The notes beneath the pieces are model-generated. The model saw only the letters and a list, made by a program, of their open reading frames with translations. It did no database searches and was not told the origin of the DNA. Both the position numbers and the translations under genes were made by a program. From Opitutales bacterium (lineage in GTDB: Bacteria > Verrucomicrobiota > Verrucomicrobiia > Opitutales > UBA2987): 64,000 nt of DNA. Location of the stretch: NCBI GenBank assembly GCA_965226885.1, contig CBDDEL010000010.1, positions 105,168-169,167 on the forward strand, given 5' to 3'. This document shows positions 5,624 through 59,619 of the stretch, in pieces (position 1 is the first letter of the stretch; each line of letters starts with the position of its first letter).

Positions 5624-7297
<1,674 letters not shown>

Positions 7298-7304
7298 TTA
7301 AGTG

Positions 7305-7598: not shown

Positions 7599-7706
7599 AA
7601 TGAGTCGTTTATTTTATACTTTATTTTTAGGTTTTGAGATATTGATTAAGGTTGTTAGCTTTATGCTATTCGTTTGAAAAGTCTGTTGCCCGAATGAAAT
7701 ACTAAT

Positions 7707-9674
7707 TTACTTTTTATCGTCGTCGACCATTTCAAAATCGGCATCGACGACATCATCATCGTCCGGCTTCTTGGCTCCGGCCTCGGCTGAAGAATCCTGG
7801 CCGCCTTCCTCTCCTGGCTGATCGGCACTGGGTGCTGCGTCTCCCTGGGCTTGGGCCTGGGACTGGGCATACATTTCCTTTACGGCCGCTTCCATGTCGG
7901 GGTCGTTTTGCAGTTTATCCAAGGCCGCCTTTATCTGATCCACATCATTGGATTCGAGAGCTTTCTTGGCCTCCGCAATCGTCGCTTCGATGGGGCCCTT
8001 TGTATCCTCGGAAATCTTATCGCCGCTTTCCTTGAGGAGTTTTTCGGTCTGGTAAATGGCGCTGTCCAGTTGATTGCGTGTTTCCACCGCTTCCTTGTTT
8101 TTGCGGTCTTCCTCTGCGTGGGTCTCCGCTTCCTGCTGCATGCGTTCGATCTCTTCCTGACTCAGGCCAGATGAGCCGCTGATGGTGATTTTCTGATCCC
8201 GGCCCGTGCCCAGATCTTTCGCCGTGACGTGCAATATGCCATTGGCGTCGATATCGAAAGTGACTTCGATTTGCGGCACACCCCGGGACGATGGGGGAAT
8301 CCCATCAAGCTTGAAATTACCCAGCATTTTATTGTCGCGGGCCATCGGGCGTTCGCCCTGCAAAACACGTATATCGACGCTCGGCTGGTTGTCCGAGGCG
8401 GTGGAAAAGGGTTGGGACTTTTTGGTCGGTATGGTGGTGTTGCGCTCGATCATGGGCGTCGAAATACCCCCTTCGGTCTCGATGTTGAGGGTCAATGGCG
8501 TAACATCGAGCAGCAGTACTGAATCCACTTCGCCACTCAAAACGGCTCCCTGGATGGCAGCGCCGATGGCCACCACTTCATCGGGGTTGACCCCCTTATG
8601 CGGTTCCCTTCCGGCCAATTCATGAGCCACTTCGAGAATCTTTGGGCTGCGCGTCATGCCGCCCACCAAAACGATGTTGCTGATATCGCCGACTTCGAGT
8701 TCGGCGTCCTTCAGGCACTCTTTGAACGGCCCTATTGTGCGCGCATAAAGATCATCGCAAAGCTGCTCCAGCTTGGCCCGTGTAAAGGTCACATTCAAGT
8801 GCTTGGGCCCGGTGGCGTCAGCCGTTATAAAAGGCAGGTTAATTTCAGTCTGCTGGGCCGAAGAAAGAGCGATTTTTGCTTTCTCAGCTTCTTCTTTGAG
8901 TCTTTGCAAGGCCATCGGGTCCTGTTTAAGGTCGATACCGTTTTCCTTTCTAAAATCATCCACCAGCCAATCGATGATGGCGGTGTCCCAGTTGTCGCCT
9001 CCCAGATGCGTGTCGCCCTTGGTGGCATGCACTTCAAAAACACTCTCCGCGATCTCCAGAATCGATATGTCGTAAGTGCCGCCGCCCAGGTCGTAAACGG
9101 CGATCGTTTCATCGGCCTTCTTTTCCAGCCCGTAAGCCAGGGAAGCTGCCGTCGGCTCGTTGATGATGCGTTTCACATCGAACCCGGCGATGGCCCCGGC
9201 GTCCTTGGTCGCCTGCCGCTGGGCGTCATTAAAATAAGCCGGCACGGTAATGACCGCTTCGATGATCTTTTCCCCCAGGTAGGCCTCGGCATCGGCCTTC
9301 ATTTTGCTCAAGATCATGGAAGAAATCTGCTCTGGGGAGAATTTTTCAGTTTTGCCACCGGACTGGCATTCAATCCAGGCATCACCATTTTTCCCCTCCA
9401 CTATCTTAAAAGGAATATTTCGGGACTCCTCTTGAACTTCGTTAAATTTGCGGCCAATGAGTCTTTTGGCGGAAAAAATCGTGTTTTGCGGGTTGGTCAC
9501 GGCCTGCCTTTTGGCTGCCTGGCCGACCAGCCGTTCACCCGTTTTACTAAAAGCCACCACCGACGGCGTAGTCCGGGCGCCCTCTGAATTGGGCACCACG
9601 ACCGGCTCTCCGCCCTCCATGATGGCCATACAGGAATTGGTGGTTCCCAAATCGATACCTAATACCTTGCTCAC
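7707..9674 (-). CDS. dnaK: Chaperone DnaK (Hsp70)
   Basis: [26 protein letters not shown], acidic C-terminus VVDADFE; GTG start. Confidence 0.99.
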
Positions 9675-9686
9675 GCCAACCCATAT

Positions 9687-9703
9687 AGCACTATACGTGC
9701 CAA
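9687..9703 (-). promoter_or_regulatory. Putative sigma-54 (-24/-12) promoter upstream of dnaK
   Basis: Minus strand TTGGCACGTATAGTGCT has the required GG-N10-GC spacing and one mismatch to TGGCACGNNNNTTGCW. Confidence 0.55.
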
Positions 9704-9881
9704 CGGTTATAATATACTCACAACTACTTGTTTACTAAGCAGTTATAAAATATTATCGACTATGTCGGAAACTTCGCTTTCCATGCAACCATGCCAAATT
9801 GTCCCATATTCTTGTCACAGTAAAGCGCCGCGCGCCCACTCTGTCACACTTGCACAAATTTCAATACGACCTGCTCAATAC

Positions 9882-10172
9882 GTGAGAACCTCCCAAAAAA
9901 AATCAAAAAAAGTTGACTACCAAGCCCTCAATTCCGGCTTGATGAAAATACCCCGCATCCAGGTAGCGGTCGTGCGCGACCTGCTTGATATTGGCTTCGA
10001 GGAAGTGGAAGAACTCAAAGGCCGCGCTCCCGAAGCTCTTTTTGAAGATTTGCGAAAAAAGAATCCCGAGGCCCCCAAAGACCGCCTTTACGCCTTCCGC
10101 ATGGCCGTTTACTACGCCGAAACACCCGACCCCGACCCCAAACGCCTCCACCCCTGGGCCTGGCAAGACTGA
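9882..10172 (+). CDS. Small helix-hairpin-helix protein (Cdd1/McrB-like family)
   Basis: DLLDIGFEEVEELKGRAPEALFEDL ... LYAFRMAVYYAETPDPDPKRLHPWAWQD matches the family pattern from memory. Start may be GTG 9882 or ATG near 9942. Confidence 0.75.
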   Translation: MRTSQKKSKKVDYQALNSGLMKIPRIQVAVVRDLLDIGFEEVEELKGRAPEALFEDLRKKNPEAPKDRLYAFRMAVYYAETPDPDPKRLHPWAWQD

Positions 10173-10375
10173 GGCGGGCAGTGGCAAATGCAATTGTCAG
10201 TCCGCAGTCAAAGTGCCCCCCATTGTTTCATAATTATTGAGTAGAAACATTCTGAATGCGGCATAAACAACCATAATAACGCTCTCTCAATCCATTTTTA
10301 CGATTTTCAGGTTATTTCATCCATTTCTTGAGTTTGTGAGCTTGTATTTCAGAATTAGATAGTTAGTTTCTCTAA

Positions 10376-10648
10376 ATGGCTTCTTCTCCCAAGTTGTCAC
10401 GACTTCTGCATTGGTGGTTCGCCATCATTTCAGGTTTTCTACTGCTCGCTTCCTCAATGAGAACAGAGTCTGAGGAATTTTCAGAACTCAAGGCGAGAGC
10501 GGTATCAAATGGAAATGTCACCTTAGGCTTTGAAGCAAATCTTGGCCAGATCCATGACGGCATCGATTTCCTTGCCCGGGGAAATGGATTATTCTGTATT
10601 TTTGAAACCTTCAGAAGCAGTAATCAAATCGCGGAAATCTCGGTTTAA
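10376..10648 (+). pseudogene. N-terminal fragment of a secreted protein (FEANxGQ module seen in SBBP/beta-propeller surface proteins)
   Basis: Signal-like N-terminus followed by LGFEANLGQIHDGIDFLARGNG, then the ORF ends early. Confidence 0.5.
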
Positions 10649-11055
10649 AAATCTGACATTAGATACAGTAAAACGCCGATAGCGGGAAAAGAATACGACC
10701 ATGCAGATAAAGATTCATATGTTCTTGCTTTTTGCATTCATGGCAGTCTTCGCCTCTATCGGGCACGTCGCCAACGCGCAGACGCCTATCCCGGATAGCG
10801 CTCTTGAGGTTGCTATTCGCAATTCTTTAGGGAAACCTACGGGCGATATTACCGCCGCCGACATGGAATCGCTGACCAACCTTTCGGCCTCCTTCAGTGG
10901 CATCTCCGACCTGACCGGCTTGGAGGCGGCCGTGAATCTGACCTCGCTAGACCTCCCCGGCACCCAGATCAGTGATATCGGCACCCTGAGCGGACTCACC
11001 AACCTGACATCTCTAAACCTCTCCGTCAATCAGATCAACGATATTAGCGCCCTAA

Positions 11056-12628
11056 CCCGGATATTTCATGAAGGGTAAAGTTTGGCTCGTTATTGCTATT
11101 GGAGATGGAGATGGATTTCTTTGTATTTTGAGCAGATCGTCTTGATTTTTAGGTGTTTTTCAGGGTGTAGAGACACTGCCCCCTTTCCCCCATTGGTTCG
11201 GTAGTGCCGGGGGCAGCACCAATGCACCCTTTAGGTTGGCACCAATCGGCGGGCCGCATGGTTGAAAAGACTGGCCCAAGGATAACTCTCACTTAGGTGA
11301 AAGTGAATCGTTCGGGTGTTGCGCACGATGACCGCTCCGATCTTGATTAATTTGAGCCGCAGGGTGTGCCATTGGGCCCGCGCCCACTTCGTCCCTTTTA
11401 AGGCTAACCGGCGCATGGCTTCCATCAAGGTGTAGGCCAGCGCCGACAAGAGCAATCGCCACTGATTGGCCCACCATTGATGGGCGCTGGTGCGCTCGCT
11501 GAACAATTGCATCTGTTCCTTGATTCGGTTCTCCATTTCACCGCGGCCACAGTATACCTTGTCGTAAAGCTCCTGGGGATCGCCCGGCAGGTTCGTCACC
11601 ACGAAGCGCGGGTTGGACCCCTGTGCGGTGTGTTCGGCTTTATGGATGACCAACCGCAGCCATCGCCACGAATCGACAGCATAGACGAAGTCCTGGAATA
11701 ACCGTTGTTTTTTACCCCTTAGTTCGAACCATTCTTTGGCCTGCTTTTGCAACTGCTGGGCGTCTTGCTGCAAGCGTGCATTGCGAGCCATCCCCACGAT
11801 GTAACTAACTTCGTAGCGGTCGCACCAAGAGAGTATCCGGTCTCGACAAAATCCACTGTCGGCGCGCCAAATAATCCGCGTACGGGGCCAGCTTTGGCGC
11901 ATCCGTTTAACCAGCAATTTGAGGATGGCCCCGGCATGCTTGCTGGCATCGATCTTGCTCGGCCGCAGGTAGGCCACCAGCAGCTGATCACCGCAAAAAA
12001 CATATAGCGGCAGAAAACAGTAATGATCATAATAACCGTGGAAAAAACGTCCCTCCTGGAGCCCGTGCACCGGATTGTCGGTGGCGTCAAAGTCCAGGAT
12101 GATCTCTTCGGGTTCCTCGGCAAAGGAGCCCATGAACTGTTCGACCAACAGCTCGTTTACCGCAAAGGCCGCCCGCCGATCCTGCCCGTTTTCAAAACGA
12201 CACACAGTCGGCGCGCTGGCCAACGTTTCAATGCGCCCCGTTACCGTTTGCAACAATGGATCGTGGCGCAGGGTATCAAAGTCGTTCAAATCCTCATAGC
12301 CCGCCACCAGCCCGTAAACGCGCTGCCGCAGCATCCCCAATACCTCATGGCGTACTTTGCCCTTCTGCCGTTTGTCCACTAACTGTCGGGCCGCTCGTTC
12401 GGTCAAGCCCAACTGCCGATCCACTTCCCGGATCAAAAGCAGTCCGGCATCCGAAGTAACCTCTCCGCCCTTGAAATCAACCCGCACACGGCGGCCTTTT
12501 ACCCTTGTCAACTGTAGCTTTAATTGTTTACCTTTTGTCATCGCTGATATTGCTTTAATTATTGATCTATCCTGCTGTATATCAGCAGTTAAGCATATCA
12601 ACGATACTTTTTTTACGAAATATCCGGG
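11056..12628 (-). mobile_element. IS1380 type 1
   Basis: CCCGGATATTTC ends; TSD CTAA at 11052-11055 and 12629-12632. Confidence 0.93.
11231..12601 (-). CDS. IS1380 type 1 transposase (intact; start probably the MTKGKQ ATG)
   Basis: 456-aa ORF with the IS1380 DDE motifs. Confidence 0.92.
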   Translation of the reverse strand: MICLTADIQQDRSIIKAISAMTKGKQLKLQLTRVKGRRVRVDFKGGEVTSDAGLLLIREVDRQLGLTERAARQLVDKRQKGKVRHEVLGMLRQRVYGLVAGYEDLNDFDTLRHDPLLQTVTGRIETLASAPTVCRFENGQDRRAAFAVNELLVEQFMGSFAEEPEEIILDFDATDNPVHGLQEGRFFHGYYDHYCFLPLYVFCGDQLLVAYLRPSKIDASKHAGAILKLLVKRMRQSWPRTRIIWRADSGFCRDRILSWCDRYEVSYIVGMARNARLQQDAQQLQKQAKEWFELRGKKQRLFQDFVYAVDSWRWLRLVIHKAEHTAQGSNPRFVVTNLPGDPQELYDKVYCGRGEMENRIKEQMQLFSERTSAHQWWANQWRLLLSALAYTLMEAMRRLALKGTKWARAQWHTLRLKLIKIGAVIVRNTRTIHFHLSESYPWASLFNHAARRLVPT

Positions 12629-13040
12629 CTAAGCGGGCTCACCAACCTGACATCTCTAAACCTCTCCGGCAACCAGCTCAACGATATTAGCGCCCTGAGC
12701 GGGCTCGCCAGCCTAACATTGCTATTCCTCAATTTCAGCCAGATCAGCGATATCAGCGCCCTGAGCGGGCTCACCAGCCTGATAGAGCTATACCTCTGGA
12801 ACAACCAGATCAGGGATATCACCGCCCTGAGCGGGCTCACCAGCCTGAAAACGTTACGCCTTGGCGACAATCAGATCAGCAATATTAGCGCCCTGAGCGG
12901 GCTCACCAGCCTGATAGAGCTAAACCTCGGCTACAACCAGAGCAACGATATCAGCGCCCTGAGCGGGCTCACCAGCCTGATAGAGCTATACCTCACCAAC
13001 AACCAGCTCAGTGATATTAGTGCATTATCTGAATTAACTA
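12629..13040 (+). repeat. 66-bp tandem repeats encoding the LRR units
   Basis: AGCGCCCTGAGCGGGCTCACCAGCCTG recurs with a 66-bp period. Confidence 0.9.
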
Positions 13041-13186
13041 ATCTTGTTTACCTGGATATTAGAACCAACTATCTCGATCTGCGGGAAGATTCGCGGGCAC
13101 GGCAAGTTGTTGATGGACTACAAGTCAATGGCACGGTAGTTGTTTATGACAATCAGCAGATTAAATTATCCCTACAAGTTCATTAG

Positions 13187-14753
13187 CCCGGATATTTCGT
13201 AAAAAAAGTATCGTTGATATGCTTAACTGCTGATATACAGCAGGATAGATCAATAATTAAAGCAATATCAGCGATGACAAAAGGTAAACAATTAAAGCTA
13301 CAGTTGACAAGGGTAAAAGGCCGCCGTGTGCGGGTTGATTTCAAGGGCGGAGAGGTTACTTCGGATGCCGGACTGCTTTTGATCCGGGAAGTGGATCGGC
13401 AGTTGGGCTTGACCGAACGAGCGGCCCGACAGTTAGTGGACAAACGGCAGAAGGGCAAAGTACGCCATGAGGTATTGGGGATGCTGCGGCAGCGCGTTTA
13501 CGGGCTGGTGGCGGGCTATGAGGATTTGAACGACTTTGATACCCTGCGCCACGATCCATTGTTGCAAACGGTAACGGGGCGCATTGAAACGTTGGCCAGC
13601 GCGCCGACTGTGTGTCGTTTTGAAAACGGGCAGGATCGGCGGGCGGCCTTTGCGGTAAACGAGCTGTTGGTCGAACAGTTCATGGGCTCCTTTGCCGAGG
13701 AACCCGAAGAGATCATCCTGGACTTTGACGCCACCGACAATCCGGTGCACGGGCTCCAGGAGGGACGTTTTTTCCACGGTTATTATGATCATTACTGTTT
13801 TCTGCCGCTATATGTTTTTTGCGGTGATCAGCTGCTGGTGGCCTACCTGCGGCCGAGCAAGATCGATGCCAGCAAGCATGCCGGGGCCATCCTCAAATTG
13901 CTGGTTAAACGGATTCGCCAAAGCTGGCCCCGTACGCGGATTATTTGGCGCGCCGACAGTGGATTTTGTCGAGACCGGATACTCTCTTGGTGCGACCGCA
14001 ACGAAGTTAGTTACATCGTGGGGATGGCTCGCAATGCACGCTTGCAGCAAGACGCCCAGCAGTTGCAAAAGCAGGCCAAAGAATGGTTCGAACTAAGGGG
14101 TAAAAAACAACGGTTATTCCAGGACTTCGTCTATGCTGCCGATTCGTGGCGATGGCTGCGGTTGGTCATCCATAAAGCCGAACACACCGCACAGGGGTCC
14201 AACCCGCGCTTCGTGGTGACGAACCTGCCGGGCGATCCCCAGGAGCTTTACGACAAGGTATACTGTGGCCGCGGTGAAATGGAGAACCGAATCAAGGAAC
14301 AGATGCAATTGTTCAGCGAGCGCACCAGCGCCCATCAATGGTGGGCCAATCAGTGCCGATTGCTCTTGTCGGCGCTGGCCTACACCTTGATGGAAGCCAT
14401 GCGCCGGTTAGCCTTAAAAGGGACGAAGTGGGCGCGGGCCCAATGCCACACCCTGCGGCTCAAATTAATCAAGATCGGAGCGGTCATCGTGCGCAACACC
14501 CGAACGATTCACTTTCACCTAAGTGAGAGTTATCCTTGGGCCAGTCTTTTCAACCATGCGGCCCGCCGATTGGTGCCAACCTAAAGGGTGCATTGGTGCT
14601 GCCCCCGGCACTACCGAACCAATGGGGGAAAGGGGGCAGTGTCTCTACACCCTGAAAAACACCTAAAAATCAAGACGATCTGCTCAAAATACAAAGAAAT
14701 CCATCTCCAATAGCAATAACGAGCCAAACTTTACCCTTCATGAAATATCCGGG
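13187..14753 (+). mobile_element. IS1380 type 1
   Basis: Same IRs; TSD TTAG at 13183-13186 and 14754-14757. Confidence 0.93.
13214..14584 (+). CDS. IS1380 type 1 transposase (intact)
   Basis: 456-aa ORF nearly identical to the other copies. Confidence 0.92.
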   Translation: MICLTADIQQDRSIIKAISAMTKGKQLKLQLTRVKGRRVRVDFKGGEVTSDAGLLLIREVDRQLGLTERAARQLVDKRQKGKVRHEVLGMLRQRVYGLVAGYEDLNDFDTLRHDPLLQTVTGRIETLASAPTVCRFENGQDRRAAFAVNELLVEQFMGSFAEEPEEIILDFDATDNPVHGLQEGRFFHGYYDHYCFLPLYVFCGDQLLVAYLRPSKIDASKHAGAILKLLVKRIRQSWPRTRIIWRADSGFCRDRILSWCDRNEVSYIVGMARNARLQQDAQQLQKQAKEWFELRGKKQRLFQDFVYAADSWRWLRLVIHKAEHTAQGSNPRFVVTNLPGDPQELYDKVYCGRGEMENRIKEQMQLFSERTSAHQWWANQCRLLLSALAYTLMEAMRRLALKGTKWARAQCHTLRLKLIKIGAVIVRNTRTIHFHLSESYPWASLFNHAARRLVPT

Positions 14754-33184: not shown

Positions 33185-34457
33185 TCCTCCTTTCTAGGAT
33201 AAGCGTACCGGTTTTAAAGCGCCCTCTTTACCGTACCGGTTTTTCCCCGGCGTTTACAGCAAAGGCATGAAAAGCCGGGTCACCGTGCTGCCGGACCCGC
33301 TCAAACCCCCATTGCTAGAACATATTGATCGGGCGAGGTTACTTTATCAATTGGACCAGAGTAAGAAACATCCGGGGGTTCAAGTTCCATTCGCGCTGGA
33401 TAGGAAATATCCGAATCTTGGTAAAGAATGGGGATGGTTCTGGCTTTTCCCGGCCAGAACATTATCCCGAGACCCGGTGAGCGGAATCATTCGAAGACAC
33501 CACTTTCATCCCACAACCCTCCAGAGGGCGGTAAAGAGAGCCTCACAGTTGGCTGGGATTATTAAACATATTAGCTGTCACACATTTCGGCACAGCTTTG
33601 CCACCCATCTACTTGAGGACGGCTACGATATTAGAACGGTTCAGGAACTGCTGGGACATAGCAATGTCACCACGACGATGATCTACACCCATGTTCTGAA
33701 TCGCGGCGGACTATGCGTGAAGAGTCCGCTGAGGGTTTGATTAACCGGTGATGGCTGCCTTCGATCAGATAGCCCAAAACGGAGTGCCAAAAAAGCTTGA
33801 ATAAGGAGTCGCACCATTCATTGCAAACCCCTGAGACATTCCCAACAGTCAAGACCAATGATTAACGTCAAATAGGTCGGATCGGGCTCAAGAGGCTGGC
33901 GTAGTGCTTCTCAGTGGTGACGGTGACATAGGAGTCGCCGAGGAACTGTGCTGCCGTCAGGAGTCCATCCCGCGTTGCGATAACGCTGCCGGCGTGTTTA
34001 CGCAACTCGTGCAACCGTTTAACTCGATCCGGTATGAAACGCGCAATCCAGACGCACGCCTCTCGCTGGATTGCTTTCCGCCGATCTGTTGGCGTGTACC
34101 CAGGCACGATGTAATCCCAAGCCTTCTTAGGCGGACAGAGTTCCTTCCAATCTTCCACTCTCTTCTCCGATACGGGAATCCACCGGTCCCGGCTTTTTGG
34201 AGCAAAGTCCTGCACTTCGGCCGAAGGTGTACCGGCCGACCGTGCCACTACACCGAGTTGATACCAACCTTTCTGCTTTTCAATCCAATGCCAACGTGCC
34301 GCCAGGATCTCCGCTGATCGCATCCCCAGGTAAAACGCCATCTCAAAAATAACGAAAAGCCGCGGATTCTCCGTCCGTAATTTCGTGCGCGCCTCCTGCT
34401 CCATTTGTTCTAGCACATTGATGTGCACTGGAAAAAGTGGACACGAGATTCTCCTAA

Positions 34458-34769
34458 ATGGAGAATCGAAGCATGGGAAGAAGACGCTTTAGTATAGAGT
34501 TCAAAAATGAGGCAGTTCAACTGATGATACTCGATGGTCTGAGCGCCACCGAGGTATCGACCAAACTTGGGGTCAACACCAACCAATTGTATAGGTGGAA
34601 GAGGCTCTATCTGGACGATCAGCAGGGCGAAGCCACCTCAAAGCGACAGAGCAGTCCGAAGGAGATGGCGGCCGAGATAGATCGTCTTCGCAAAGAGCTG
34701 CGCCGCTCGGAGCGGATCAACCAGATACTAAAAAAAACGGTGGGCTACTTTGCCAAGGACGAACAATGA
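34458..34769 (+). CDS. IS3 OrfA
   Basis: RRRFSIEFKNEAV HTH. Confidence 0.85.
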   Translation: MENRSMGRRRFSIEFKNEAVQLMILDGLSATEVSTKLGVNTNQLYRWKRLYLDDQQGEATSKRQSSPKEMAAEIDRLRKELRRSERINQILKKTVGYFAKDEQ

Positions 34770-35691
34770 AGTACCAGTTTGTCAAAGACAACGAGGGGCG
34801 CTTCAAGATCGAGGAAATATGCTCGGCGATGGGGATTTGTCGCAGTGGCTATTACTGCTGGAGGCACCGAGCGCCCTCGGCCCGGCGGATCGAGGACGAG
34901 GGAATCAAGGGGGCGATCCTGATCCTGAAGGTACACAAAGAGGCCAAGGGCCGCTATGGGCATCGGCCAATGCACCGCCATCTGAAGGATGATGAGGGCA
35001 TCGATTGCGGCCGTGACCGGGCTCTGCGTCTGATGCGTGAAATGGGAATCAAAAGCACCCAGAGTAAACGCTTTAAGCCATTAAAAACCAACAGTAACCA
35101 TCCCCCTATGGTTACAGCCCCAATGTGCTTAAAAAGCATGGCCAGCCGACCCATATCGACGAGGTCTGGGTGGCGGACACGACCTACCTACGGACCCTGG
35201 CCGGTTGGATGTACTTGGCCACGGTGATGGACCTGTTCAGCCGACGCCTGCTGGGCTGGAGCGTTTCCAACCACAACGACGCGAAGCTGGTTGGCAAGGC
35301 CCTCAAAGCCGCGGCCATGACCCGCGGCACACTGCGCACCGGGATTATTCATCACAGCGATCGGGGCAGCCCCTACGCCAGCGACGACTATCAGAGGCTG
35401 GTCTCTGAACTAGGCATGAAGCCGAGCATGAGCGCCCAAGGCAACTGCTACGACAACGCGGCCATGGAATCGTTCTACGGCCGCTTCAAGACCAGCACGA
35501 TTCGAGGCCGCCACTTTGCCGACGAGCGCGAACTGCGATCAACTGTCTTCGAATACGTGGAAATCTTCTACAACCGATATCGCAAACATTCCTCTCTGAG
35601 TTACCAAAGCCCAGTCCAATTCGAGGAAAATATTTGCCCCCCATGGGGGGCAACGAGAAAACAAAACCCTTTACCAAAACAAGCCGCCTGA
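34766..35691 (+). pseudogene. IS3 OrfB, frameshifted near 35105
   Basis: WVADTTY, HHSDRGSPY, CYDNAAMESF; two extra C relative to copy 2. Confidence 0.8.
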
Positions 35692-36455
35692 CACACTAAT
35701 CAATAAACAATGAATATAAGAGAATCCCGTGTCCAACAAATCCAGTACACGTCACATCCGACTCGATCGGTGCGTAGTGGGTTTTGTGCACCTTCAGCTT
35801 GGATACCCCCAAAAATCCCCTCAAATCTGGCAAATGCAACTCTCCGTAGAGATTCTCCCGCGCAGCCTTGCTAAAAACACTCTGCGCCTGCCGCAAAGTG
35901 GAGTTGAGCGAATAGTTGTGCCGTAGATCACCTTTAGGAGAAATTCCTTTTCTCTTTCTCCTCTGACGGCGAAATTCGATCACAAAATCGCGGGTGAGGA
36001 CATCTCAACGTAAATCCCGCGCCTCCTTGCGCGGGTAAACCTCGCGCGCCATGGCCAGCAAATTGCCCACATTGCGCTGCATCGAATCGGGCTGGATGGA
36101 GGTATAATCGGCAATCCCCTTCATATAAATATCGCAAATCTTCCCTAGGGATGGGTAGAGGTTGCGCCTTAACGCCGGAGCCGGACCTATCCCTTGTCCG
36201 CTCTCATGTAAGGTAAGAAAATCTGCCAAGCCTGGTCCCGGGCTTCGCGCTCATGGAATTTTCCGGTGGATCTTCGGATCTCCCTCCTGTTGGTACGAAA
36301 CCGCACATGGTAAACACCTCTTTTGCCGTGTCGAAAAACATTCAAATCTCTCTTGGATCGAATCATTAGAAGTTCAAAATTCTTTTAAGATTGCCAATCT
36401 TTGAGGCATGTATTTGAATTGAAAATGAAGCAGATGACCTAAAATCAACTGTTTA

Positions 36456-36587: not shown

Positions 36588-36664
<77 letters not shown>

Positions 36665-36714
36665 TATTAATATCTTATTGTTTTTCAATATTTTACACAT
36701 TTGATTCAATCAAA

Positions 36715-36730
36715 TCTTTAATATTAAAGA
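36715..36730. repeat. 16-bp palindrome TCTTTAATATTAAAGA, copy 1 of 6
   Basis: Exact copies at 36715, 39750, 40334, 41560 and 59225; one-mismatch copy at 42601. Confidence 0.9.
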
Positions 36731-36797
36731 ATAAAAGTAAGAATAGACTCGCGAATAATCGTCAATGACGCCGAGTTAAATTATCCCTGATTATTTC

Positions 36798-37526
36798 TTG
36801 CCTATCAGCCTGTCAGAGCAAACATCTTCTCTTGTGTCCTCTCCCCCTCAAAAGAGAATTCGACTAAGTGATTATAAGGGAATTCCCGAGCAAGGGATAA
36901 GGGATTATTTTAATTACTCGGGTATAATAGACAAAAGTTTCCTAAAAAAGTCTGTTTGGTGGTGGCGAAGCATCGATGGAGTGCTCAAAAAATACAAAAT
37001 TGGAACCTGCAAAGATTTTCAGAACCCTGATGAATTTTTTTGCGGATTTCCTTTACGTTTCCTTGAGGACCTCAAAATACAACAGGAATACAATAGGATC
37101 GAACCTATAATGGATTTTATCTTTTATTTTGAGCTTTCGGGGAGGATCGACCCTCCAAAAAACTGGGGTCCCGCAATCTCTGAACTTCCTTATACCCGCA
37201 AAGGTGTTCCTCTCGTTGATGCTCGATTTTCCGAAAGAGAATTTGAATACATCTCCTGCGAAGATTTAAACATTTGCCTCAGTAGCCCCGATTCATATCT
37301 AAAAAAGCAATTTCTTGCCTTTGTTGACAGAAAACAGAAAGAGTATGGGATTGAAAAAACCAAATGGAATAAAGGGCAAGCGAACCGCACAAAATACAAC
37401 ATATCCTCTAAATTTCAAGTCCTTGAGATTTTCGATAAAATAACGATTCTCGGGCAAAATAAAGACATCGGTAACGACAAAAAAGCAAATCTTCGGAAGG
37501 CTATTCGCAAGTTTTATCAGGGCTGA
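36798..37526 (+). CDS. Hypothetical island protein (242 aa)
   Basis: Long AT-rich ORF in the position typical of satellite islands, upstream of the xis/AlpA-like gene. Confidence 0.65.
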   Translation: MPISLSEQTSSLVSSPPQKRIRLSDYKGIPEQGIRDYFNYSGIIDKSFLKKSVWWWRSIDGVLKKYKIGTCKDFQNPDEFFCGFPLRFLEDLKIQQEYNRIEPIMDFIFYFELSGRIDPPKNWGPAISELPYTRKGVPLVDARFSEREFEYISCEDLNICLSSPDSYLKKQFLAFVDRKQKEYGIEKTKWNKGQANRTKYNISSKFQVLEIFDKITILGQNKDIGNDKKANLRKAIRKFYQG

Positions 37527-37583
37527 TAAATTTTCTTACTTATACCCGTTGAACATGCCGCATGAAATGTTTTTCGTGGTGGC

Positions 37584-37841
37584 ATGAACCGAGAAAACTT
37601 AAGGTATGCGAGAGGGGTAGGGAAGCCTGAATGGATACGTTTGCCGCGTCCAGGCGGACGCTGTGAGCACACAGGTCTTTCAAGAACAACCCTTACAGAG
37701 CTGACTGTTCCTTCACCGGCGAATCAATCCTCACCGCCTGTGAAATCCAGATATCTTAGGAAAAGAAATGCTCGGCGAGGAATCCGGCTAATCAATTACG
37801 ATTCCCTAATGGAATACATTGAAAAACAAGGTGTACTATAG
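37584..37841 (+). CDS. Small DNA-binding protein, AlpA/excisionase-like
   Basis: WIRLP...TGLSRTTLTEL...RLINYDSLMEYI. Confidence 0.7.
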   Translation: MNRENLRYARGVGKPEWIRLPRPGGRCEHTGLSRTTLTELTVPSPANQSSPPVKSRYLRKRNARRGIRLINYDSLMEYIEKQGVL

Positions 37842-37849
37842 GGCTGTAA

Positions 37850-39376
37850 TTGCAGAAAGGTAAATTCATGAAAGTTAAAAGACTTTATCCTTCTAAAAGG
37901 AAAAGGGCTATAAAAAGCAGGTTTCCGAGGAAAAAGAAGGTAAAAAGGAAATCTAAATCCTGTAATTTTCCTCGGCAAAAAGTTCTCGATAAAATTGAAG
38001 CCAAGGTTAGCTCTGCTGTCTATTTTAATAAAAAAAGCGGGACTGTAAGAAAGCTCAATGATAGATACTTCGCGAGGTTATTTACTAAAGTCCACTCGAT
38101 TTTATTTGAGCCATCATTAAATGGATTTTACCGTTATAATGCAGCGAACGGGGTTTGGGGAAATACCACAGAGACGAAACTGCTCAACCAGATTGGCTCA
38201 GTGATCAAGATGTATGCGGATAATCAGGGTAAACCTGAGATAAACGAGAAAAACGACACAAATTTTCAACGTAATGTTTTAACCCAATTGAAGGGAAATA
38301 CTGAAAAAAAGGATGCCTTCAAAACCAAAAATGGAATCCTACACCTTGATAATTGCATGTTGGATATCAATGAATATCCGCCGTCTGAGAAAAAGTTTTC
38401 AAAAAAATATTATTCAACTTATCAGGTGCCTATTCGCTATGATCCTAAAGCGATATGTCCGAAATTCATCGATAAACTTCTTATACCAGTCCTGTTAGCC
38501 TATGATCTCGACCTTCTTCAGAGAGTATCAGGGGCTATTTTGTATGGGGGAAATAAGGCTCAACGAGTAGAAATCATTGAAGGTTCGGGCGGAACCGGTA
38601 AATCTCAATTTGTTGAAATTTTGGAGGTAATAATTGGAAAGGAGAAATGCCATGAACTTCGAATTCAAAATATGGATTCACGTTTTGAAATTTCACGACT
38701 ACTGGGGAAGACACTTTTGGTGGGGGAGGATGTTCCAGGTGATTTCCTTAATCGCAAATTTTCACACAAAATCAAAGCATTAACAGGGGGAGGCCACCAT
38801 TCAGTAGAATCGAAAAACTCAAATGCCACCCTCCAAATTCAAGGTAAATTCAATATCCTAATTACTTGCAACAGCGAACTTCAGGTCAAGTTAGATGGGG
38901 ATTACTCCGCATGGGAGAGAAGATTGATAATAATTCCGTTTCAATCTCATAAGCCAAAAAAGCGAATCCCAAATTTTGCGCAAATGCTTTTGCGCGAAGA
39001 AGGCCCCGGAATCCTGAACTGGATGATTGAAGGGTATAAAAAACATCGAACAGAATTGAAATCTTTTGCAGACTTCAATCTCAATATAACCCAAAAACGA
39101 AGGGTAAAGAATCTTTTGAATGAGAGTACCCCCCTACAGATATTCGGCCAAACCTGTGTAAAGAAAGCTAAAGGAGATGTGACAACCGATGAATTGGTTA
39201 ATGCCTATTTCAAATTCAAATTTTCTCAAAATCGTAAATGGGAGGAATTGACTCGACGACAAGTAGAACGGGGCCTACCCGGTATCATACTAGAGCTGTT
39301 TCATGTAATTCGACGCAAAGACATTAAAAGGGGAGGCAAGGCTCGCCGTGGCTATAAAGGGATCAAGTTGAAGTAA
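37850..39376 (+). CDS. P4-family/D5-like SF3 helicase (phage/plasmid primase C-terminal type)
   Basis: D5_N-like YRYN..GVW, Walker A GSGGTGKS, Walker B LLVGEDV, motif C LITCN, AWERRL, EGPGILNW. No obvious primase domain. Confidence 0.88.
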   Translation: MQKGKFMKVKRLYPSKRKRAIKSRFPRKKKVKRKSKSCNFPRQKVLDKIEAKVSSAVYFNKKSGTVRKLNDRYFARLFTKVHSILFEPSLNGFYRYNAANGVWGNTTETKLLNQIGSVIKMYADNQGKPEINEKNDTNFQRNVLTQLKGNTEKKDAFKTKNGILHLDNCMLDINEYPPSEKKFSKKYYSTYQVPIRYDPKAICPKFIDKLLIPVLLAYDLDLLQRVSGAILYGGNKAQRVEIIEGSGGTGKSQFVEILEVIIGKEKCHELRIQNMDSRFEISRLLGKTLLVGEDVPGDFLNRKFSHKIKALTGGGHHSVESKNSNATLQIQGKFNILITCNSELQVKLDGDYSAWERRLIIIPFQSHKPKKRIPNFAQMLLREEGPGILNWMIEGYKKHRTELKSFADFNLNITQKRRVKNLLNESTPLQIFGQTCVKKAKGDVTTDELVNAYFKFKFSQNRKWEELTRRQVERGLPGIILELFHVIRRKDIKRGGKARRGYKGIKLK

Positions 39377-40499
39377 TGTCTTATTTCTCCACCTCTTGGG
39401 CATTTCAGCCAATAAAATAGGCCATAATGTCCACTTGGTAGTTTAGACCATGATGAATACAACAATAACAAAAGAAGCGTCCGAAGCGTCCGAGATGCCA
39501 CATTTTTTAGTCCATCGACTAGGAAGGACAGTTCTGAGAGCAATATTTTTATCGATTCAGACCCTAAACATACACACGCTTGCTCCTAGTTTCCTTAATG
39601 AACCGACGGCCTGCCGGAAAACCGGTTTTGGTTCCAGTATTGTGTATAGGGTTAATAACATACATACGTTTATTCCCTGCTCTTTTGGCTACCGTCGTAG
39701 CACTTCCTTCCTATTCTCTCCTGGATATCTTTTACTACTCTACTTACTATCTTTAATATTAAAGACTTTCTTTTCCGCCCTCTTTTTTAATTTTTCTAGG
39801 AACTCTGCGTACTCTTCATCGGAACTAAAGTGCACTTAACATACCGATCTCCCCTATCTAGCTCTTTAAGAAATCCGCCTGTCTTAATTTCCATCAATAA
39901 TCATAAAAAAACTATCATCCATCTCCGCGCATTTTGGGCAAAAAAGCCCTTCCCTCATACGGGGCCTTCTTAGCTCAATATGGCCGGTTTTTCTTCTCAG
40001 ATTGATCGTCGTCCTCATTTTGTCTAAACCGCCCATTCTGGGGTCTCCGTTTAATTGTGTATAAGGTTATAATCCAAAAATTGCCTATTTTTCGACTATT
40101 TTGGTCGTTTGAAGTATTTTTTGCTTTTGTTGGCCTTATGTTAGAACGATTCTGTCGACCTCGAATTTTACTCTTAATTTTAACACAATTTTATAGCCAG
40201 GCCCTAGAGAAAAATTTCCGCGTTAAGTATGGGATGACTACAAGGACGGCACGACCTATGGTTTTAAGGCTGGCACATACTCGTCCAATAGGCAATCTAT
40301 CATATCCTAAGGTAAGTATGTTAAATTCAATAATCTTTAATATTAAAGACTCGATTCAAGGATTTTTAAAAATGGCCCAGAAATTGTTTTATGTAGAAAC
40401 AGGCACTTGGCTAGGGCTGGGCAATGAAAACGATTTCTGGGGGCATATGAAGAGCTTTAGCGCATCATTTATAAGGCAATTAAACTGCATTCATTAACT

Positions 40500-41186
40500 A
40501 TGAAGAAAAAACAATTAAATGATACCGCTGCGGCGAATAAGATACTGAGAAGGTTCAACAATAAATATTTGAAGCAGGCAAGAGAACGCCATACTAACCT
40601 CAGGCGATTAATTGACCACAGAACGGAAGACCATGTTCTGGAGCTTACCCTGACCTTTCCCAAAAGTTCTCAGCCGATAAGCCCACAAGAACTTGGCAAA
40701 AGATTTAACAGCTTTGCTACAAATCATCTTGATAGAAAAACTTATCGGGGGAAAAAAATGTTTCCAGAATGGATTCGGTTTATTGAACCACACTCAAATG
40801 ATTCAAAGAAAACGAGGTATACGAAAACTCTTCCCAGGAAATCTCTCCACGTCCATGTAATTCTTGGAGTTTCACCCAGTGTCAATCATCCTATGCGGGA
40901 ATTTGAGGATTATGACGATTTCGATGCAGCATATACGCCTCCTCAATGGTTGACTGATTGGATTGAGGAATTGAAAAAGGTTTTACCTAGATACGGATTT
41001 GGATTACAGTACTCGGTAAATCCCATAAAGAGTAATAGACGTTCGTTTGGAAAATACTTTGTAAAAACGATCCGAAAGTATGCTGGGAAAAATGGAAGAC
41101 CTAAATACCTAAAGAGAGTACATCTTGTTACCTACGGTGGTGGTTTTAAAAATAATATTACTTCTAAGTTGTGTTATCCTTTTTAG
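40500..41186 (+). CDS. Rolling-circle replication HUH endonuclease (Rep-like)
   Basis: Motif I LTLTF, motif II LHVHVIL, RYGFG, motif III YFVK. Confidence 0.7.
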   Translation: MKKKQLNDTAAANKILRRFNNKYLKQARERHTNLRRLIDHRTEDHVLELTLTFPKSSQPISPQELGKRFNSFATNHLDRKTYRGKKMFPEWIRFIEPHSNDSKKTRYTKTLPRKSLHVHVILGVSPSVNHPMREFEDYDDFDAAYTPPQWLTDWIEELKKVLPRYGFGLQYSVNPIKSNRRSFGKYFVKTIRKYAGKNGRPKYLKRVHLVTYGGGFKNNITSKLCYPF

Positions 41187-41638
41187 AACGAGATATCATT
41201 TCTAATATTTTAACATACACACCATTATCTCTCTTGGATAGTGTATTTCAAGGATTGGCTTTTAAGCGGGGTAAGACAAGGAATATAATATATATATACG
41301 CGAGGGAAATTTTTATGATTTTGGGCACATTCCCTCAGGCAGAATCATAGCAATTGGATACTTTGTGAGTGGATGACTATGGGGGTCAGCATTTATAATA
41401 CCTTATCAGTCAGCCTTATAAGATAGCTTAGGGGCCTTTTTCTAAATTTCAATCGGTAACCTTAAGAGGTTCACTGTGTAACGTGTGTATGTCCCAAAAT
41501 ACTCCATTTTTGATTGAGTTGTTTCAAAATATGGGTTTCCTGCATTTTTATCGTTAGCTTCTTTAATATTAAAGAAATTCTACAAAACAGGGGGCAGAAT
41601 GAGATTTTTTTTTGCCCATTCCGTGTGCAAGGCACCCC

Positions 41639-41857
41639 TTAGTCATGCCTCAGCCTGTCATAAACCACTTGGTGGCACCGCGTCAAATACTCTGAAACAC
41701 TTAACCGGCACATTTGAGCCGCCTGCTTCATTTCTGCTTTATCGTCCGCCGTCACTCGCATTTGCACGGTCTCCTCTTTTACCAGTGCCGCCCGAATTTT
41801 TTCCTCCGGGGTTCTGGAAAGTAGCTTTGATAGTTTTTCTTTCTTTTTTGCGCTCAT
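41639..41857 (-). CDS. Ribbon-helix-helix (MobC/DUF1778-like) protein
   Basis: ETVQMRVTADDKAEMKQAAQMCRLSVSEYL; its ATG overlaps the recombinase stop codon (ATGA). Confidence 0.7.
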   Translation of the reverse strand: MSAKKKEKLSKLLSRTPEEKIRAALVKEETVQMRVTADDKAEMKQAAQMCRLSVSEYLTRCHQVVYDRLRHD

Positions 41858-42540
41858 GCTAATATTTTCTCCTGCCGGTCCAGGATGCCTTTGATTGTTC
41901 TGGCTCTCCATTGCCCGCCCTTCTTCGTTTTAACATTTCGGCTTTCAAGGTGACGGGCAATTTTACGGAAACTTTTTCCGGCCCCCCTGAGCTTTTGAAT
42001 CAAATATATTGCTTCCTCTTCGGCAGGGTTTCTGGTAAGTGTTCTCTTGTCGGGAGAGAGGTCATAGCCGAAAGGCACCTTGCTGGATATCCTGCGATTT
42101 TGTCTGCGTAAATGCTCCATAGCCGCTGTTGTCCGTTCACTGATTTGATCCCTCTCGAATTCGGCTAAAACAGCGAGCATACGGAATATCATTTTCCCGG
42201 CGGCGCTGGTGGTATCGATTTTCTCCGAGAGGCTTACTAAATCAGCCCCAGCTTTGTCTAGGCGCTCGCTGATAAGGATAGCATCCTTGGTTGAGCGGGC
42301 TAAACGGCTTAATGAGTAAACAATCAGGGCTCCTTTGGATTGGCAGACTTGTTGAATGGCTTTTTGAAGCTTTGGTCGATTGTCAGCCCTGCCGCCGCTC
42401 ATGGTCTCAATGTATAGGCCTTCTAAGGTGCTTTCATTGGCTACACACCATGCCCTGATTTTAGCTTCCTGAGCCTCCAGACTTATTCCGTCTTTTGCCT
42501 GTCCCTTTGTGGAGACTCGTATATATCCTATTACTGTCAC
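41854..42540 (-). CDS. Serine recombinase (resolvase/invertase type with C-terminal recombinase DNA-binding domain)
   Basis: GYIRVST catalytic serine, VYSLSRLARS, AEFERDQISERT, VPFGYD. Confidence 0.93.
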   Translation of the reverse strand: MTVIGYIRVSTKGQAKDGISLEAQEAKIRAWCVANESTLEGLYIETMSGGRADNRPKLQKAIQQVCQSKGALIVYSLSRLARSTKDAILISERLDKAGADLVSLSEKIDTTSAAGKMIFRMLAVLAEFERDQISERTTAAMEHLRRQNRRISSKVPFGYDLSPDKRTLTRNPAEEEAIYLIQKLRGAGKSFRKIARHLESRNVKTKKGGQWRARTIKGILDRQEKILA

Positions 42541-42649
42541 TTCTCATAAAGTAATGCCCTTAATCAATACAGTCAATGTGATTTTTGGAAGCGAGCTATG
42601 TCTTTAATGTTAAAGACGCATATTGTTCGCGTCATTTGGGCAAAACCGC

Positions 42650-42928
42650 TATATTCTTGATTCAGCCAGCGGATTAACTTCAACAGAGGCCGAGAATGCC
42701 TTTGCCTTGTCAATAATCGAGTGTGGAAAATTATCCCCTCAGATTGTTGCACGGGAAAAGGCTGAGGAAGTCAAAAAGAACGGCCTTTTGGAAATTGTCT
42801 CTACACCTGAATCCTTAAAAAGTATCGGTGGCCTGGAACTTCTCAAAGAATGGCTCCTTCAACGGAGAGATGCTTTTGGAAAGGAGGCCAGAGAATACGG
42901 CCTGCCAGCGCCCAAAGGAATTCTTCTT
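42650..42928 (+). pseudogene. Internal fragment of a Ycf46-like AAA ATPase
   Basis: GLTSTEAENAF...EK...KKNGLLE...IGGLELLKEWL...YGLPAPKGILL, cut just before Walker A. Confidence 0.75.
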
Positions 42929-44323
42929 TCATCCATCAAACCGGAACGAAAACATATCTGCGTTCTTGAGCGTGAAACGCAACTGAATAACGCCCTGTTT
43001 GAAACCTGGATCTTGAGCCCAATCCACGCGAGCATCAACGGCGTCTCCCCTCAGCGGCTGTGATTTACCGACGACTTGCCCGGACTTGTTCAGGGCTTCG
43101 ATCGTCAACGTGCCGTCGGCTCGTACGACGTAGTTGACAAGCAGACGCTGGCCCTCGTAACGCAGCGGCTTGGTCGTCATCTGTCCGCCGTCGCTACCCC
43201 CGCACAAAGCGACGAACCCGTCCACGCGATAGACGAATCGCCGGACTCGGCCCGGTGTCGGTTCGAAGAAATTCTCCGTTGCGTAGACCGAGATTTCGTT
43301 CGGCTTGCCGGGCAGTTGGAACATGCCCCAGGCCATGTAATTGCTGCGGTTGTGGTTGCGGTCCTTGGGAGCCGTGCGCGGAATGACCGCTTCGGCGTAA
43401 CGGTGGAATTCCGTCCCGTCGCGGCTGGTCATCAGGATCGGCTCGACCTGCTGGCTCTTGGGTTCGTAACGAGTGGGAAATCCGATGAACAAATGCGGCG
43501 CACGGAAATACTTCTGAATCGCATTTGTGTAAAGATGCTCGTTGGCCGTGCCTTGCGGATAAGTCAGCTCGGCTTCGTTCTCCCAGGTAATGAAGTCTTT
43601 GGAGGTCGCGGTGCGGATCGCTCGCACGCCGTTGCCGAAATAACGCCAGTAGGCGCGGTACTCGCCGCGGTCGGTATCCCAGAACGCGAGGTTCTGCGAG
43701 TCGAACGCTCCGTGGGTGATCACGGGTTCCTCCTGCATAAGCTTCCAGTTAATGCCGTCGGGAGACTGAAACGCATACAGGCCGAGCCGGTAGCTCTGGT
43801 CGCCTTGTGACCGCGCCAGCGCCTTATAGCGCGCTTCGGGTTGGCAGTCCGGGTTGGCATCTTTAAAAGGAGTGAAATTGTGGCTGAACATGCCGTCCCA
43901 GATGATATTGTTTGCCTTGGAGCCGTTAAACTCGACCAAGCCGAGGTTCGGTTTCGTCCACCGGATGCCGTCTTTGCTTTCGGCATAGCAGGTGACTTCC
44001 TCATGAGCGGCCTTCTGCTGCTCGTCGTGCTGCCAGCCGCGATAGATCATGCGGTAAACGCCGCCGTCTTGGAAAAAGGTGTAATAGCCGCTGCTGTTTC
44101 CCTCCCACGGCTGGTCGGCGACAAACACGACCTCTTTCGGTTCGGGCCTCATCAACTGCTGCTGAACGTCGCCCGTGATTTCGCCTATTACATGGTCGTC
44201 AACGAACAACTCCAGCCGGTTGTCAACGTCGATCGGCTCTGCGGACTCAGCCAACGTGATCGTGCAGAGTGCGAGTACAAAAGCAGACACGGGAGTGTTC
44301 AAGAATTGGATGCAACGGAGCAT
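42929..44323 (-). CDS. Secreted beta-propeller glycoside-hydrolase-like protein (GH32/43-like)
   Basis: Signal peptide, RLELFVDD, YAESKDGIRWTKP, FDSQNLAFWD, R.DGFVAL; likely start MLRCIQ at 44323. Confidence 0.7.
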   Translation of the reverse strand: MLRCIQFLNTPVSAFVLALCTITLAESAEPIDVDNRLELFVDDHVIGEITGDVQQQLMRPEPKEVVFVADQPWEGNSSGYYTFFQDGGVYRMIYRGWQHDEQQKAAHEEVTCYAESKDGIRWTKPNLGLVEFNGSKANNIIWDGMFSHNFTPFKDANPDCQPEARYKALARSQGDQSYRLGLYAFQSPDGINWKLMQEEPVITHGAFDSQNLAFWDTDRGEYRAYWRYFGNGVRAIRTATSKDFITWENEAELTYPQGTANEHLYTNAIQKYFRAPHLFIGFPTRYEPKSQQVEPILMTSRDGTEFHRYAEAVIPRTAPKDRNHNRSNYMAWGMFQLPGKPNEISVYATENFFEPTPGRVRRFVYRVDGFVALCGGSDGGQMTTKPLRYEGQRLLVNYVVRADGTLTIEALNKSGQVVGKSQPLRGDAVDARVDWAQDPGFKQGVIQLRFTLKNADMFSFRFDG

Positions 44324-59014: not shown

Positions 59015-59349
59015 AAGCGGCTGAAGGATCTGGAGTGGCGTCAGCACTCAAAGTGGATTCACCGGGCTTTATCAGTGACCTATCGAAAAAGCTGAGGAAG
59101 TAGGGGACTATTGAGTTGGAAACCCATTTGAGTAAGTAGGCTTGGCCGTCGGTTTTTCCAAAGTTTCGATGGCAGTCTATTCAGCGTCCCGGCGGGTTTG
59201 CTGGTTGAGTAGGGATTTACAGAGTCTTTAATATTAAAGACGGATTCTTTTCAATGATTGCCCGGTATGCTCGAATAGGAATCGGATTACTGGGCCTCCA
59301 GACTGGGTCCTTCCCTTGCCTGTCCTTCAGTGGAAACTCGTATAAATCC

Positions 59350-59619
59350 AATTTCGACTGGCACCCGATACGGGATGAGGAAGAAAATTTTTCGATACAA
59401 AAGGAACCAATGCTGTGGGAACCCCCAACAGAAGGAAAGACCTTTCCAAGCTTTGACACAGCAAAGGGAAAATCAGCAATAATTGTTTAATACTGCCGAT
59501 TTGATCATTAAATATTGTAGGAAAGGATTGCCATATCACATTGAAAGCAAAAAATTGGATCAAAATATTAGGAAGTAGCTATTTTCAACGATTATCAATG
59601 TTCATATGGGCAATCTCGG
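59350..59619 (+). mobile_element. IS1380 type 2 right-end remnant
   Basis: RLAPDTG-stop followed by the 3' region and an IRR variant ending CAATCTCGG. Confidence 0.8.

Follow-up and report, generated by a model that had tools for sequence, protein, structure and literature searches.

Chromosomally integrated rolling-circle plasmids are already documented in Actinobacteria, where conjugative and integrative elements of actinomycetes (AICEs) such as pSAM2 are integrated at tRNA genes and replicate as rolling circles by means of the HUH protein RepSA (PMC2440964), and among pCRESS plasmids, whose integrated forms carry Reps in which an HUH nuclease is fused to a superfamily 3 (SF3) helicase (Kazlauskas et al. 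2019, PMC6668415). Here, we analyse a low-GC block at positions 36665-42928 of a 64,000-nt stretch of DNA (the window, by which we mean the whole stretch) from an Opitutales bacterium, together with other contigs of the same genome (C8, C16 and C17 in the following). With slightly better than even confidence, we read this block as what is left, next to the tRNA gene, of an integrated plasmid-like element of mosaic make-up that replicated by rolling circle and has since decayed.

The block resembles AICEs in its apparent integration at a tRNA gene, its long attachment (att) repeat, its HUH Rep and its putative small helix-turn-helix (HTH) gene, but its host is verrucomicrobial (Opitutales-like), it holds neither an integrase gene nor, by Pfam and PHROG searches, an FtsK-like Tra or other conjugation gene, and it adds an SF3 helicase and an operon of a serine recombinase and a ribbon-helix-helix (RHH) protein. 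It shares with pCRESS plasmids the lack of capsid genes, a site-specific chromosomal integration and the combination of HUH nuclease and SF3 helicase functions; in the block, however, the two functions reside in separate genes, 1.1 kb from each other, whose lineages, the gpII/Arp clade for the nuclease and the P4/D5 clade for the helicase, are unrelated. P4-family primase-helicase modules likewise have a D5_N, DUF5906 and TIGR01613 region following a small HTH gene, whereas the block lacks a Prim-Pol or Toprim domain, a P4-like int, cos and capsid-size genes. The Rep itself belongs to the same family as phasyl Arp and filamentous-phage gpII (PF23343, REP_ORF2-G2P), with which its LTLTF, HxHUUU and YxxK motifs align; unlike these proteins it is chromosomally encoded, short (228 versus 290-430 aa), equipped with a single catalytic Tyr and devoid of the N-terminal motif and C-terminal domain, and its putative nick motif sits in a perfect palindrome that is repeated five times.

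Results

Probable integration site and ends of the block

The GC content of the block is 40.3%, compared with 53.3% in the remaining window, and a tRNA-Thr(TGT) gene directly precedes it (Table 1). On contig C17, positions 692821-692869 (L175 9822-9870) hold a 49-bp copy of the 3' half of this tRNA gene that is 96% identical, lies outside any tRNA gene and is 36 bp from the end of a Mla-type operon. Two congeners have the identical tRNA-Thr gene with the Mla operon 4-9 kb downstream (3') of it; conservation with a congener also extends over the 200 bp upstream of tRNA-Thr. Since the 49-bp copy lies beside the ancestral downstream flank, we take the two repeats to represent the attL and attR sites of an island inserted by a tyrosine integrase, its ends having been separated later, with the C17 copy as the likely attR. 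Its position on a contig other than that of attL implies a rearrangement mediated by insertion sequences (IS).

No integrase gene was found within the block, and the only integrase-like gene nearby is disrupted, lacks a Pfam match and lies 5' of tRNA-Thr (window 33868-36366). An integrase gene that starts beside the 5' end of the tRNA gene and is transcribed away from it is seen in the Opitutales Rep islands L231, L236, L244, L247 and L250, and the window has the same geometry.

At the opposite end, the reading frame of an AAA ATPase fragment opens at 42614, right after a stop codon inside the fifth copy of the palindrome described below, and its homology ends at about 42941. The low-GC block stops at the right cut (about 42929-42941), and a convergent GC-rich glycoside-hydrolase-like gene ends at 42929. 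We regard the right end of the block as a rearrangement joint inside the ATPase gene. An insertion model predicts that the missing N-terminal half of the ATPase is present elsewhere in the island, where it was not found.

A congener of the same genus harbours what we consider the intact local archetype beside tRNA-Thr. Positions 6400-13713 of locus L231 (G002:C30:138400-158399) form an island of 31-43% GC that abuts the 5' end of tRNA-Thr and comprises, in order, an integrase gene, two orphan genes, an HTH_17 gene, a PF23343 Rep gene and, as defence cargo, a SIR2-like gene and Type ISP restriction genes. The block differs from this arrangement by its P4-type helicase module, the recombinase-RHH operon, the array of palindromes and the truncation. 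More broadly, 48 of the 401 genomes sampled from the order (12%) encode PF23343 Reps, and 17 of the 20 sampled loci have a tRNA gene within 10 kb, many of them together with a tyrosine integrase.

Gene order, strands and coordinates within the block were re-derived and are the same as in the initial annotation, i.e. a hypothetical protein, an HTH gene, a helicase, a spacer, a Rep and a convergent recombinase-RHH pair. That annotation had also remarked on the freedom from IS in an IS-saturated window and on the absence of capsid genes; both observations hold, as the block contains zero transposase ORFs amid IS-rich surroundings, and neither its ORF list nor Pfam and PHROG searches showed a capsid, packaging or transposase gene. 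Every block gene is single-copy in the 5.48-Mb genome.

The replication protein

The product of ORF 40500, already suspected to be an HUH Rep, gave no Pfam, NCBIfam or PHROG match at E<=0.1 and no sequence match in the PDB; a word-indexed search returned Rep itself alone, and no protein more than ~35% identical was found in large collections. A tblastn search with Rep pointed to enterobacterial plasmids of 1.2-1.5 kb with a single gene annotated "phasyl DNA replicon protein arp" (28% pairwise identity to Arp, E=8e-13), and an exhaustive search yielded 33 representatives at E<1e-3. Alignments of 23 and 33 sequences show little or no variation at T50 (LTLTF), H117/H119 (HxHUUU) and Y186/K189 (YxxK). 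Rep retains every one of these residues; its motifs I, II and III read LELTLTF, LHVHVILGV and GKYFVKT. Assignment to the family follows by transitive homology, given that 21 of the 23 aligned members match PF23343 while Rep itself has no direct match; Phage_GPA is matched by eight of the 23, and PF20199, the family of RepSA of pSAM2, by seven. The AlphaFold2 (AF2) model of Rep (pLDDT 79, pTM 0.77) had circovirus Rep nuclease domains as its best matches in the PDB (probability 0.97, E=0.015) and 31 matches below 1e-3 in a library of viral structures, including microvirus and G2P-type Reps. Homology to Arp, the three catalytic motifs and the predicted fold thus agree, and we conclude that ORF 40500 is a real, very divergent HUH Rep of the phasyl-Arp/filamentous-phage gpII family. 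No match to Rep was obtained in phage records or in a scan of viral contigs.

In metagenomes, Arp/PF23343 Reps are encoded almost exclusively on contigs of 1.2-2.8 kb. The two Arp-type contigs that were checked (L173 and L174) have terminal direct overlaps of 29 and 141 nt, which point to circles of ~2 kb that encode little besides Rep.

The recombinase operon and its association with Rep

The recombinase matches positions 1-144 of the 145 positions of Resolvase (PF00239, E=9e-40) as well as the start of the Recombinase domain, and resembles the N-terminal half of CcrB-like enzymes. It has 160 relatives from many phyla, which are ~225 aa long, end near residue 223 and are ~36-68% identical to it (mostly 49-68%); that it is a truncated large serine recombinase was ruled out, since the whole family is ~225 aa long. 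In at least 14 of the 160 relatives, an RHH gene follows the recombinase gene. The pairing of the two genes, convergent with rep, had been noted in the initial annotation and is supported by the Resolvase match and by a match of the RHH protein to NikA-like PF21983, both on the minus strand. The alignment of the RHH protein with its homologue on the metagenomic contig L006 begins at residue 23, and an internal Met at ~41857, overlapping the recombinase stop, is probably the true RHH start. The alignment and the position of this Met together indicate that recombinase and RHH are probably translationally coupled; in L006 the two genes overlap by 4 bp. Recombinases of ~225 aa, often with a NikA-like RHH gene (L010-L169), come from Planctomycetota, Nitrospirota, Acidobacteriota and many other phyla, and frequently reside on contigs of 1-2.4 kb, as for a small repeated mobile unit.

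L006, of 5,982 bp, encodes the closest relative of the block Rep (P0004). Although the two Reps are only 32-35% identical, the recombinase and RHH proteins of L006 are 76.5% and 60% identical to the block copies, and their genes are convergent with rep, as in the block. An iteron block, GAAGCGTCCGAAGCGTCCGA, is shared by the window (39468-39493) and L006 (1742-1767) and is unique in the genome, and a 24-bp motif common to both loci lies 50-90 bp upstream of rep in each. The cargo of L006 is different and includes no helicase. (A perfect 131-nt inverted duplication at the end of the contig, 5180-5310 and 5852-5982, is most likely an assembly fold-back.)

Neither Rep nor helicase was present in any of the 160 recombinase loci, neither helicase nor recombinase in any of the 20 sampled PF23343-Rep loci of the same order, and no Rep in any of the 13 helicase loci. 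The helicase relatives L199 and L200 have no Rep. Taken together with what L006 shares, these counts suggest that the iterons belong with Rep, RHH and recombinase in a single unit, of which two instances were seen (n=2), and that the helicase module was acquired separately. Helicase and Rep, therefore, appear to be neighbours by mosaicism and not a co-evolved split Rep. Of the synteny proposed at the outset, Rep with RHH and recombinase recurs once, in L006, whereas the helicase is found with Rep in none of the other loci sampled. Similarly, the proposal of two nested mini-elements is right in that the block is composite, but 'nested' is too simple a word for a truncated remnant with its attR elsewhere and its right end rearranged.

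The palindrome

The modules of the block are delimited by TCTTTAATATTAAAGA, a perfect 16-bp palindrome with four exact copies and one single-mismatch copy in the block and another copy at 59225, making six in the window where 0.02 are expected by chance. The copies flank the orphan-HTH-helicase unit, precede rep, separate the convergent rep and RHH genes and precede the recombinase gene, i.e. they mark every module boundary, and copy 5 coincides with the 5' break of the ATPase fragment as well. The genome has 12 copies, while the palindrome is absent from eight other genomes of the family, four of the same genus included. That the palindrome belongs to the host, for instance as a terminator of tRNA genes, was considered and rejected, since it is absent from these related genomes and not terminator-like.

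Elsewhere in the genome, two tRNA-Leu genes are each followed, 25 bp on, by one copy in conserved flanking sequence, in the layout also seen after tRNA-Thr. Three copies occur in relics (window 59225-59353, C16:380378-380533 and C16:77742-77896) that share a flank beginning CTGTAAATCCCTACTCAACC, and the relic in the window also holds a 67-bp piece of recombinase 5' coding sequence. These relics suggest that the element family was formerly multi-copy in the genome. An island of 5.9 kb at tRNA-Leu(TAA) (C16:77082-83023; L001 9083-15024) has exact 60-bp att repeats, an IS21 insertion, an intact gene for a 380-aa tyrosine integrase at its attR end and four palindrome copies within 800 bp of attL. 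At C8:48663-48860 (L003), tRNA-Leu(CAA) is followed by TTGATnATCAA, the palindrome and a conserved flank of ~60 nt, as at tRNA-Leu(TAA), which suggests a third related island end.

Which protein would act on the palindrome? Filamentous-phage gpII nicks within CTTT^AATA. The palindrome and the M13 gpII cleavage site have TCTTTAATA, 9 nt, in common, and a near-identical gpII-like site lies directly 3' of arp in the 1284-bp phasyl-like plasmid L004. By a rough estimate, made before AT-richness is taken into account, a 16-mer and a ~40-nt site would have 9 nt in common by chance with a probability of ~0.002. For M13 we used the site GTTCTTTAATAGTGGACTC, also given as GTTCTTTAATAGTGGACTCTTGTTCC, as in 10.1101/2023.12.22.573028. 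L006 has three covarying versions of the palindrome, CTTTAAC(A/G)TTAAAG, located 240-700 bp upstream of rep. We favour Rep as the protein acting on the palindrome, albeit tentatively; the RHH protein and the recombinase, considered together, come second as serious candidates.

The second possibility can be extended to an explanation of the whole island, in which the palindromes are crossover, res or operator sites of the recombinase and/or the RHH protein, the island consists of recombinase-shuffled cassettes, and Rep has no part in the palindrome. A dimeric binder would be well served by a perfect 16-bp palindrome centred on AT, which is also similar to the crossover sites of serine recombinases, and NikA-type RHH proteins are established binders of inverted repeats beside nick sites. 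Copies 5 and 4 lie 60 bp upstream and 63 bp downstream of the operon and so bound a 1041-bp unit, relics elsewhere join the palindrome to a recombinase 5' fragment, and the ATPase gene is broken exactly at copy 5. Conversely, the palindrome motif occurs in none of the 160 loci, including those with 49-68% identical recombinases, and any repeated 12-bp palindrome in only three of them; the L006 variants cluster upstream of rep, at least 3.4 kb from the recombinase gene, with none flanking it; and the conserved half-sites span only 8 bp, against the 12-13 bp typical of resolvase and invertase sites. On balance, we find this explanation doubtful.

A bolder version of a role for Rep, unlikely in our judgement, is that the palindrome serves as a nick-and-join site readable on both strands, at which strand transfer would excise, circularise and re-insert palindrome-bounded blocks. 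The blocks so moved, an equally unlikely proposition, would be a 3.0-kb one with the helicase, a 1.2-kb one with rep only, which is as large as a phasyl mini-replicon, and a 1.0-kb one with recombinase and RHH; they would make up a modular set of cassettes, driven by an HUH enzyme and spreading within tRNA islands.

The helicase module

The 508-aa helicase matches PF08706 D5_N, PF19263 DUF5906 and TIGR01613 primase_Cterm above cut-offs and has a Walker A motif (GSGGTGKS). As had been supposed, it has no clear primase domain: neither the domain search nor the alignment with the 663-aa relative P0153 revealed an N-terminal Prim-Pol or Toprim domain. Against PHROG "DNA primase" families the protein aligns only over their C-terminal two thirds, its residue 63 pairs with residue 214 of P0153, beyond the Prim-Pol domain of the latter, and residues 1-62 form a basic, low-complexity stretch. 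Its nearest relatives are ~42% identical, one of them from an Oceanipulchritudo metagenome-assembled genome (Opitutales), and most relatives are proteins of 600-870 aa with an N-terminal Prim-Pol domain (PF09250). Helicase-only versions are fairly common; those without a Rep occur on long contigs (P0155, P0179 and P0230), and one helicase-only version follows an HTH_17 gene beside a large serine recombinase.

Of the two genes upstream, the 242-aa ORF had no Pfam, PHROG, NCBIfam or PDB match; homologues were not found, and AF2 modelling from the single sequence gave no usable structure (pLDDT 38). No sequence similarity to Prim-Pol was found in the ORFs upstream of the helicase gene, this one included. 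The 85-aa ORF had been labelled AlpA/xis-like. Its position directly before the helicase gene fits this label, HTH_17 genes being likewise placed before the helicase gene in L200 and before rep in L231, whereas the HTH_17 match itself is sub-threshold (E=0.072); no pairwise similarity was detected to the HTH_17 proteins of L200 and L231.

The presence of a primase-less helicase and an HUH Rep in one block could be taken to mean a functional split replicon, as put forward in the initial annotation, with the helicase as the dedicated unwinding partner of Rep and the pair as a bacterial counterpart, working in trans, of the HUH-SF3 fusions known from CRESS-DNA viruses and pCRESS plasmids. Both genes are intact and on the same strand, only the spacer with iterons and palindromes separates them, neither the Walker motifs of the helicase nor any catalytic residue of Rep has been lost, and the prim-pol domain lost from the helicase is one that a nick-primed replicon could spare. 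We nevertheless consider such a split replicon quite improbable, considering that the pairing recurs in none of the Rep loci, the helicase loci or L006, which was the initial annotation's own measure, that helicase-only proteins exist without a Rep and that host SF1 helicases normally serve bacterial rolling-circle replicons (reviewed in PMC5714925). The designation of the block as a satellite, of the P4 type, the phage-inducible chromosomal island (PICI) type or the PICI-like element (PLE) type, we think very improbable: the tRNA-adjacent position, low GC, lack of structural genes and small HTH gene ahead of a P4-family helicase would suit it, but there is no integrase in the block, no packaging-redirection, capsid-size, capsid-hijack or terminase gene and no helper link, PHROG matches are confined to helicase, recombinase and ATPase fragment, viral contigs gave only distant helicases, and Rep had no phage-record match, although gene absence is weak evidence either way in a truncated element.

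The features of the block and its surroundings are collected in Table 1. Spacer ORFs had no family match, and the spacer had no Rfam match. A distance of 374 bp separates the helicase stop from palindrome copy 2 (39376-39750) as well as the rep stop from copy 4 (41186-41560); the two segments show no mutual similarity, and the equality is probably a coincidence.

Table 1. Features of the block and associated sites (window coordinates; strand '.' for unstranded features)
Feature	Position	Strand	Remarks
tRNA-Thr(TGT)	36588..36664	+	3' 49 nt: putative attL of former island; ARAGORN, Rfam
Palindrome copy 1	36715..36730	.	TCTTTAATATTAAAGA; 50 bp past tRNA; small palindrome TTGATTCAATCAA before it
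Orphan 242-aa ORF	36798..37526	+	No family match
85-aa ORF, possibly AlpA/HTH_17-like regulator (weak)	37584..37841	+	HTH_17 E=0.072, sub-threshold
D5_N + DUF5906 SF3 helicase, P4 family, 508 aa	37850..39376	+	Pfam, PHROG, NCBIfam
AT-rich non-coding spacer, 1.1 kb	39377..40499	.	Contains iterons, palindrome copies 2 and 3
Iteron block GAAGCGTCC x2	39468..39493	+	92% identity over 26 bp with L006
Palindrome copy 2	39750..39765	.	Exact
Palindrome copy 3	40334..40349	.	Exact; 150 bp edge to edge upstream of rep
Conserved motif ATGAAAACGnTTTCTnGGGGGCAT	40424..40446	+	Upstream of rep; 92% identity with L006 836-859
HUH rolling-circle Rep, 228 aa, phasyl-Arp/gpII family (PF23343-like)	40500..41186	+	Homology, motifs, fold
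Palindrome copy 4	41560..41575	.	Exact; between convergent rep and RHH genes
NikA-like RHH, 90 aa	41639..41911	-	PF21983 E=3.9e-7; MbpA/MobA-like
Small serine recombinase, 228 aa	41854..42540	-	Resolvase E=9e-40
Palindrome copy 5, one mismatch	42601..42616	.	60 bp edge to edge upstream of recombinase
AAA ATPase gene, internal fragment	42614..42941	+	phrog_8638 positions 214-314 of 568; both ends cut
Relic outside block: sixth palindrome copy and 67-bp recombinase 5' coding piece	59225..59353	.	Sequence matches

Discussion

Our analysis favours a decayed, integrated rolling-circle plasmid-like element, assembled from two modules that would have separate origins. Module 1 would be a P4-type unit, made up of the orphan gene, the small HTH gene and the SF3 helicase without prim-pol, while module 2 would be the rolling-circle backbone of iterons, Arp/gpII-type HUH Rep and the operon of serine recombinase and NikA-like RHH. 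The intact element would have resided between attL at tRNA-Thr and the 49-bp attR, to be torn apart later in an IS-ridden genome. In the ancestor, a tyrosine integrase would have excised the element at the tRNA repeats; Rep would have bound the iterons, nicked within TCTTTAATATTAAAGA and started rolling-circle replication, the circle being closed at the next copy. The recombinase may have resolved multimers, and the RHH protein could have been a regulator or a nicking accessory.

It should be noted that several observations weigh against this reading. With regard to integration, the block itself contains no integrase, and an older integration event, unrelated to this element, may have left the repeat on C17. 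With regard to Rep, the second Tyr of most family members is a Thr, and two further features that most relatives have, the LPCLxxNNS motif at the N-terminus and the last 100-200 aa at the C-terminus, are missing, so that the protein may be inactive; the closest relative, P0004, also lacks the second Tyr and the N-terminal motif. With regard to the palindrome, repeated palindromes are not general in PF23343 Rep loci (nor are they in recombinase loci), and the CTTTAAT motif is present only in the phasyl-like L004 and missing from the other Arp mini-replicons, L005 and L170-L174. The identities of the proteins with their motifs and fold, the att repeat, the truncations, the patterns of co-occurrence and the distribution of the palindrome are established by the analysis. 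What acts on the palindrome, and what function any part of the block retains, we infer from sequence, which by itself does not assign the palindrome to Rep over the RHH protein or the recombinase. Finally, L006 is the only locus besides the block that links Rep, RHH, recombinase and palindrome, and the 242-aa ORF could hide a priming function.

Apart from the history of this particular block, the operon of a ~225-aa serine recombinase and a NikA-like RHH protein emerges as a widespread, unstudied two-gene unit. Reps of the Arp/gpII type, which otherwise reside mostly on mini-replicons of 1-3 kb, recur in Opitutales as a replication module of islands at tRNA genes. A palindrome resembling a double-sided gpII nick site divides up the island described here, which, if Rep indeed acts on the palindrome, would offer a tractable case of HUH-mediated module exchange in genomic islands.

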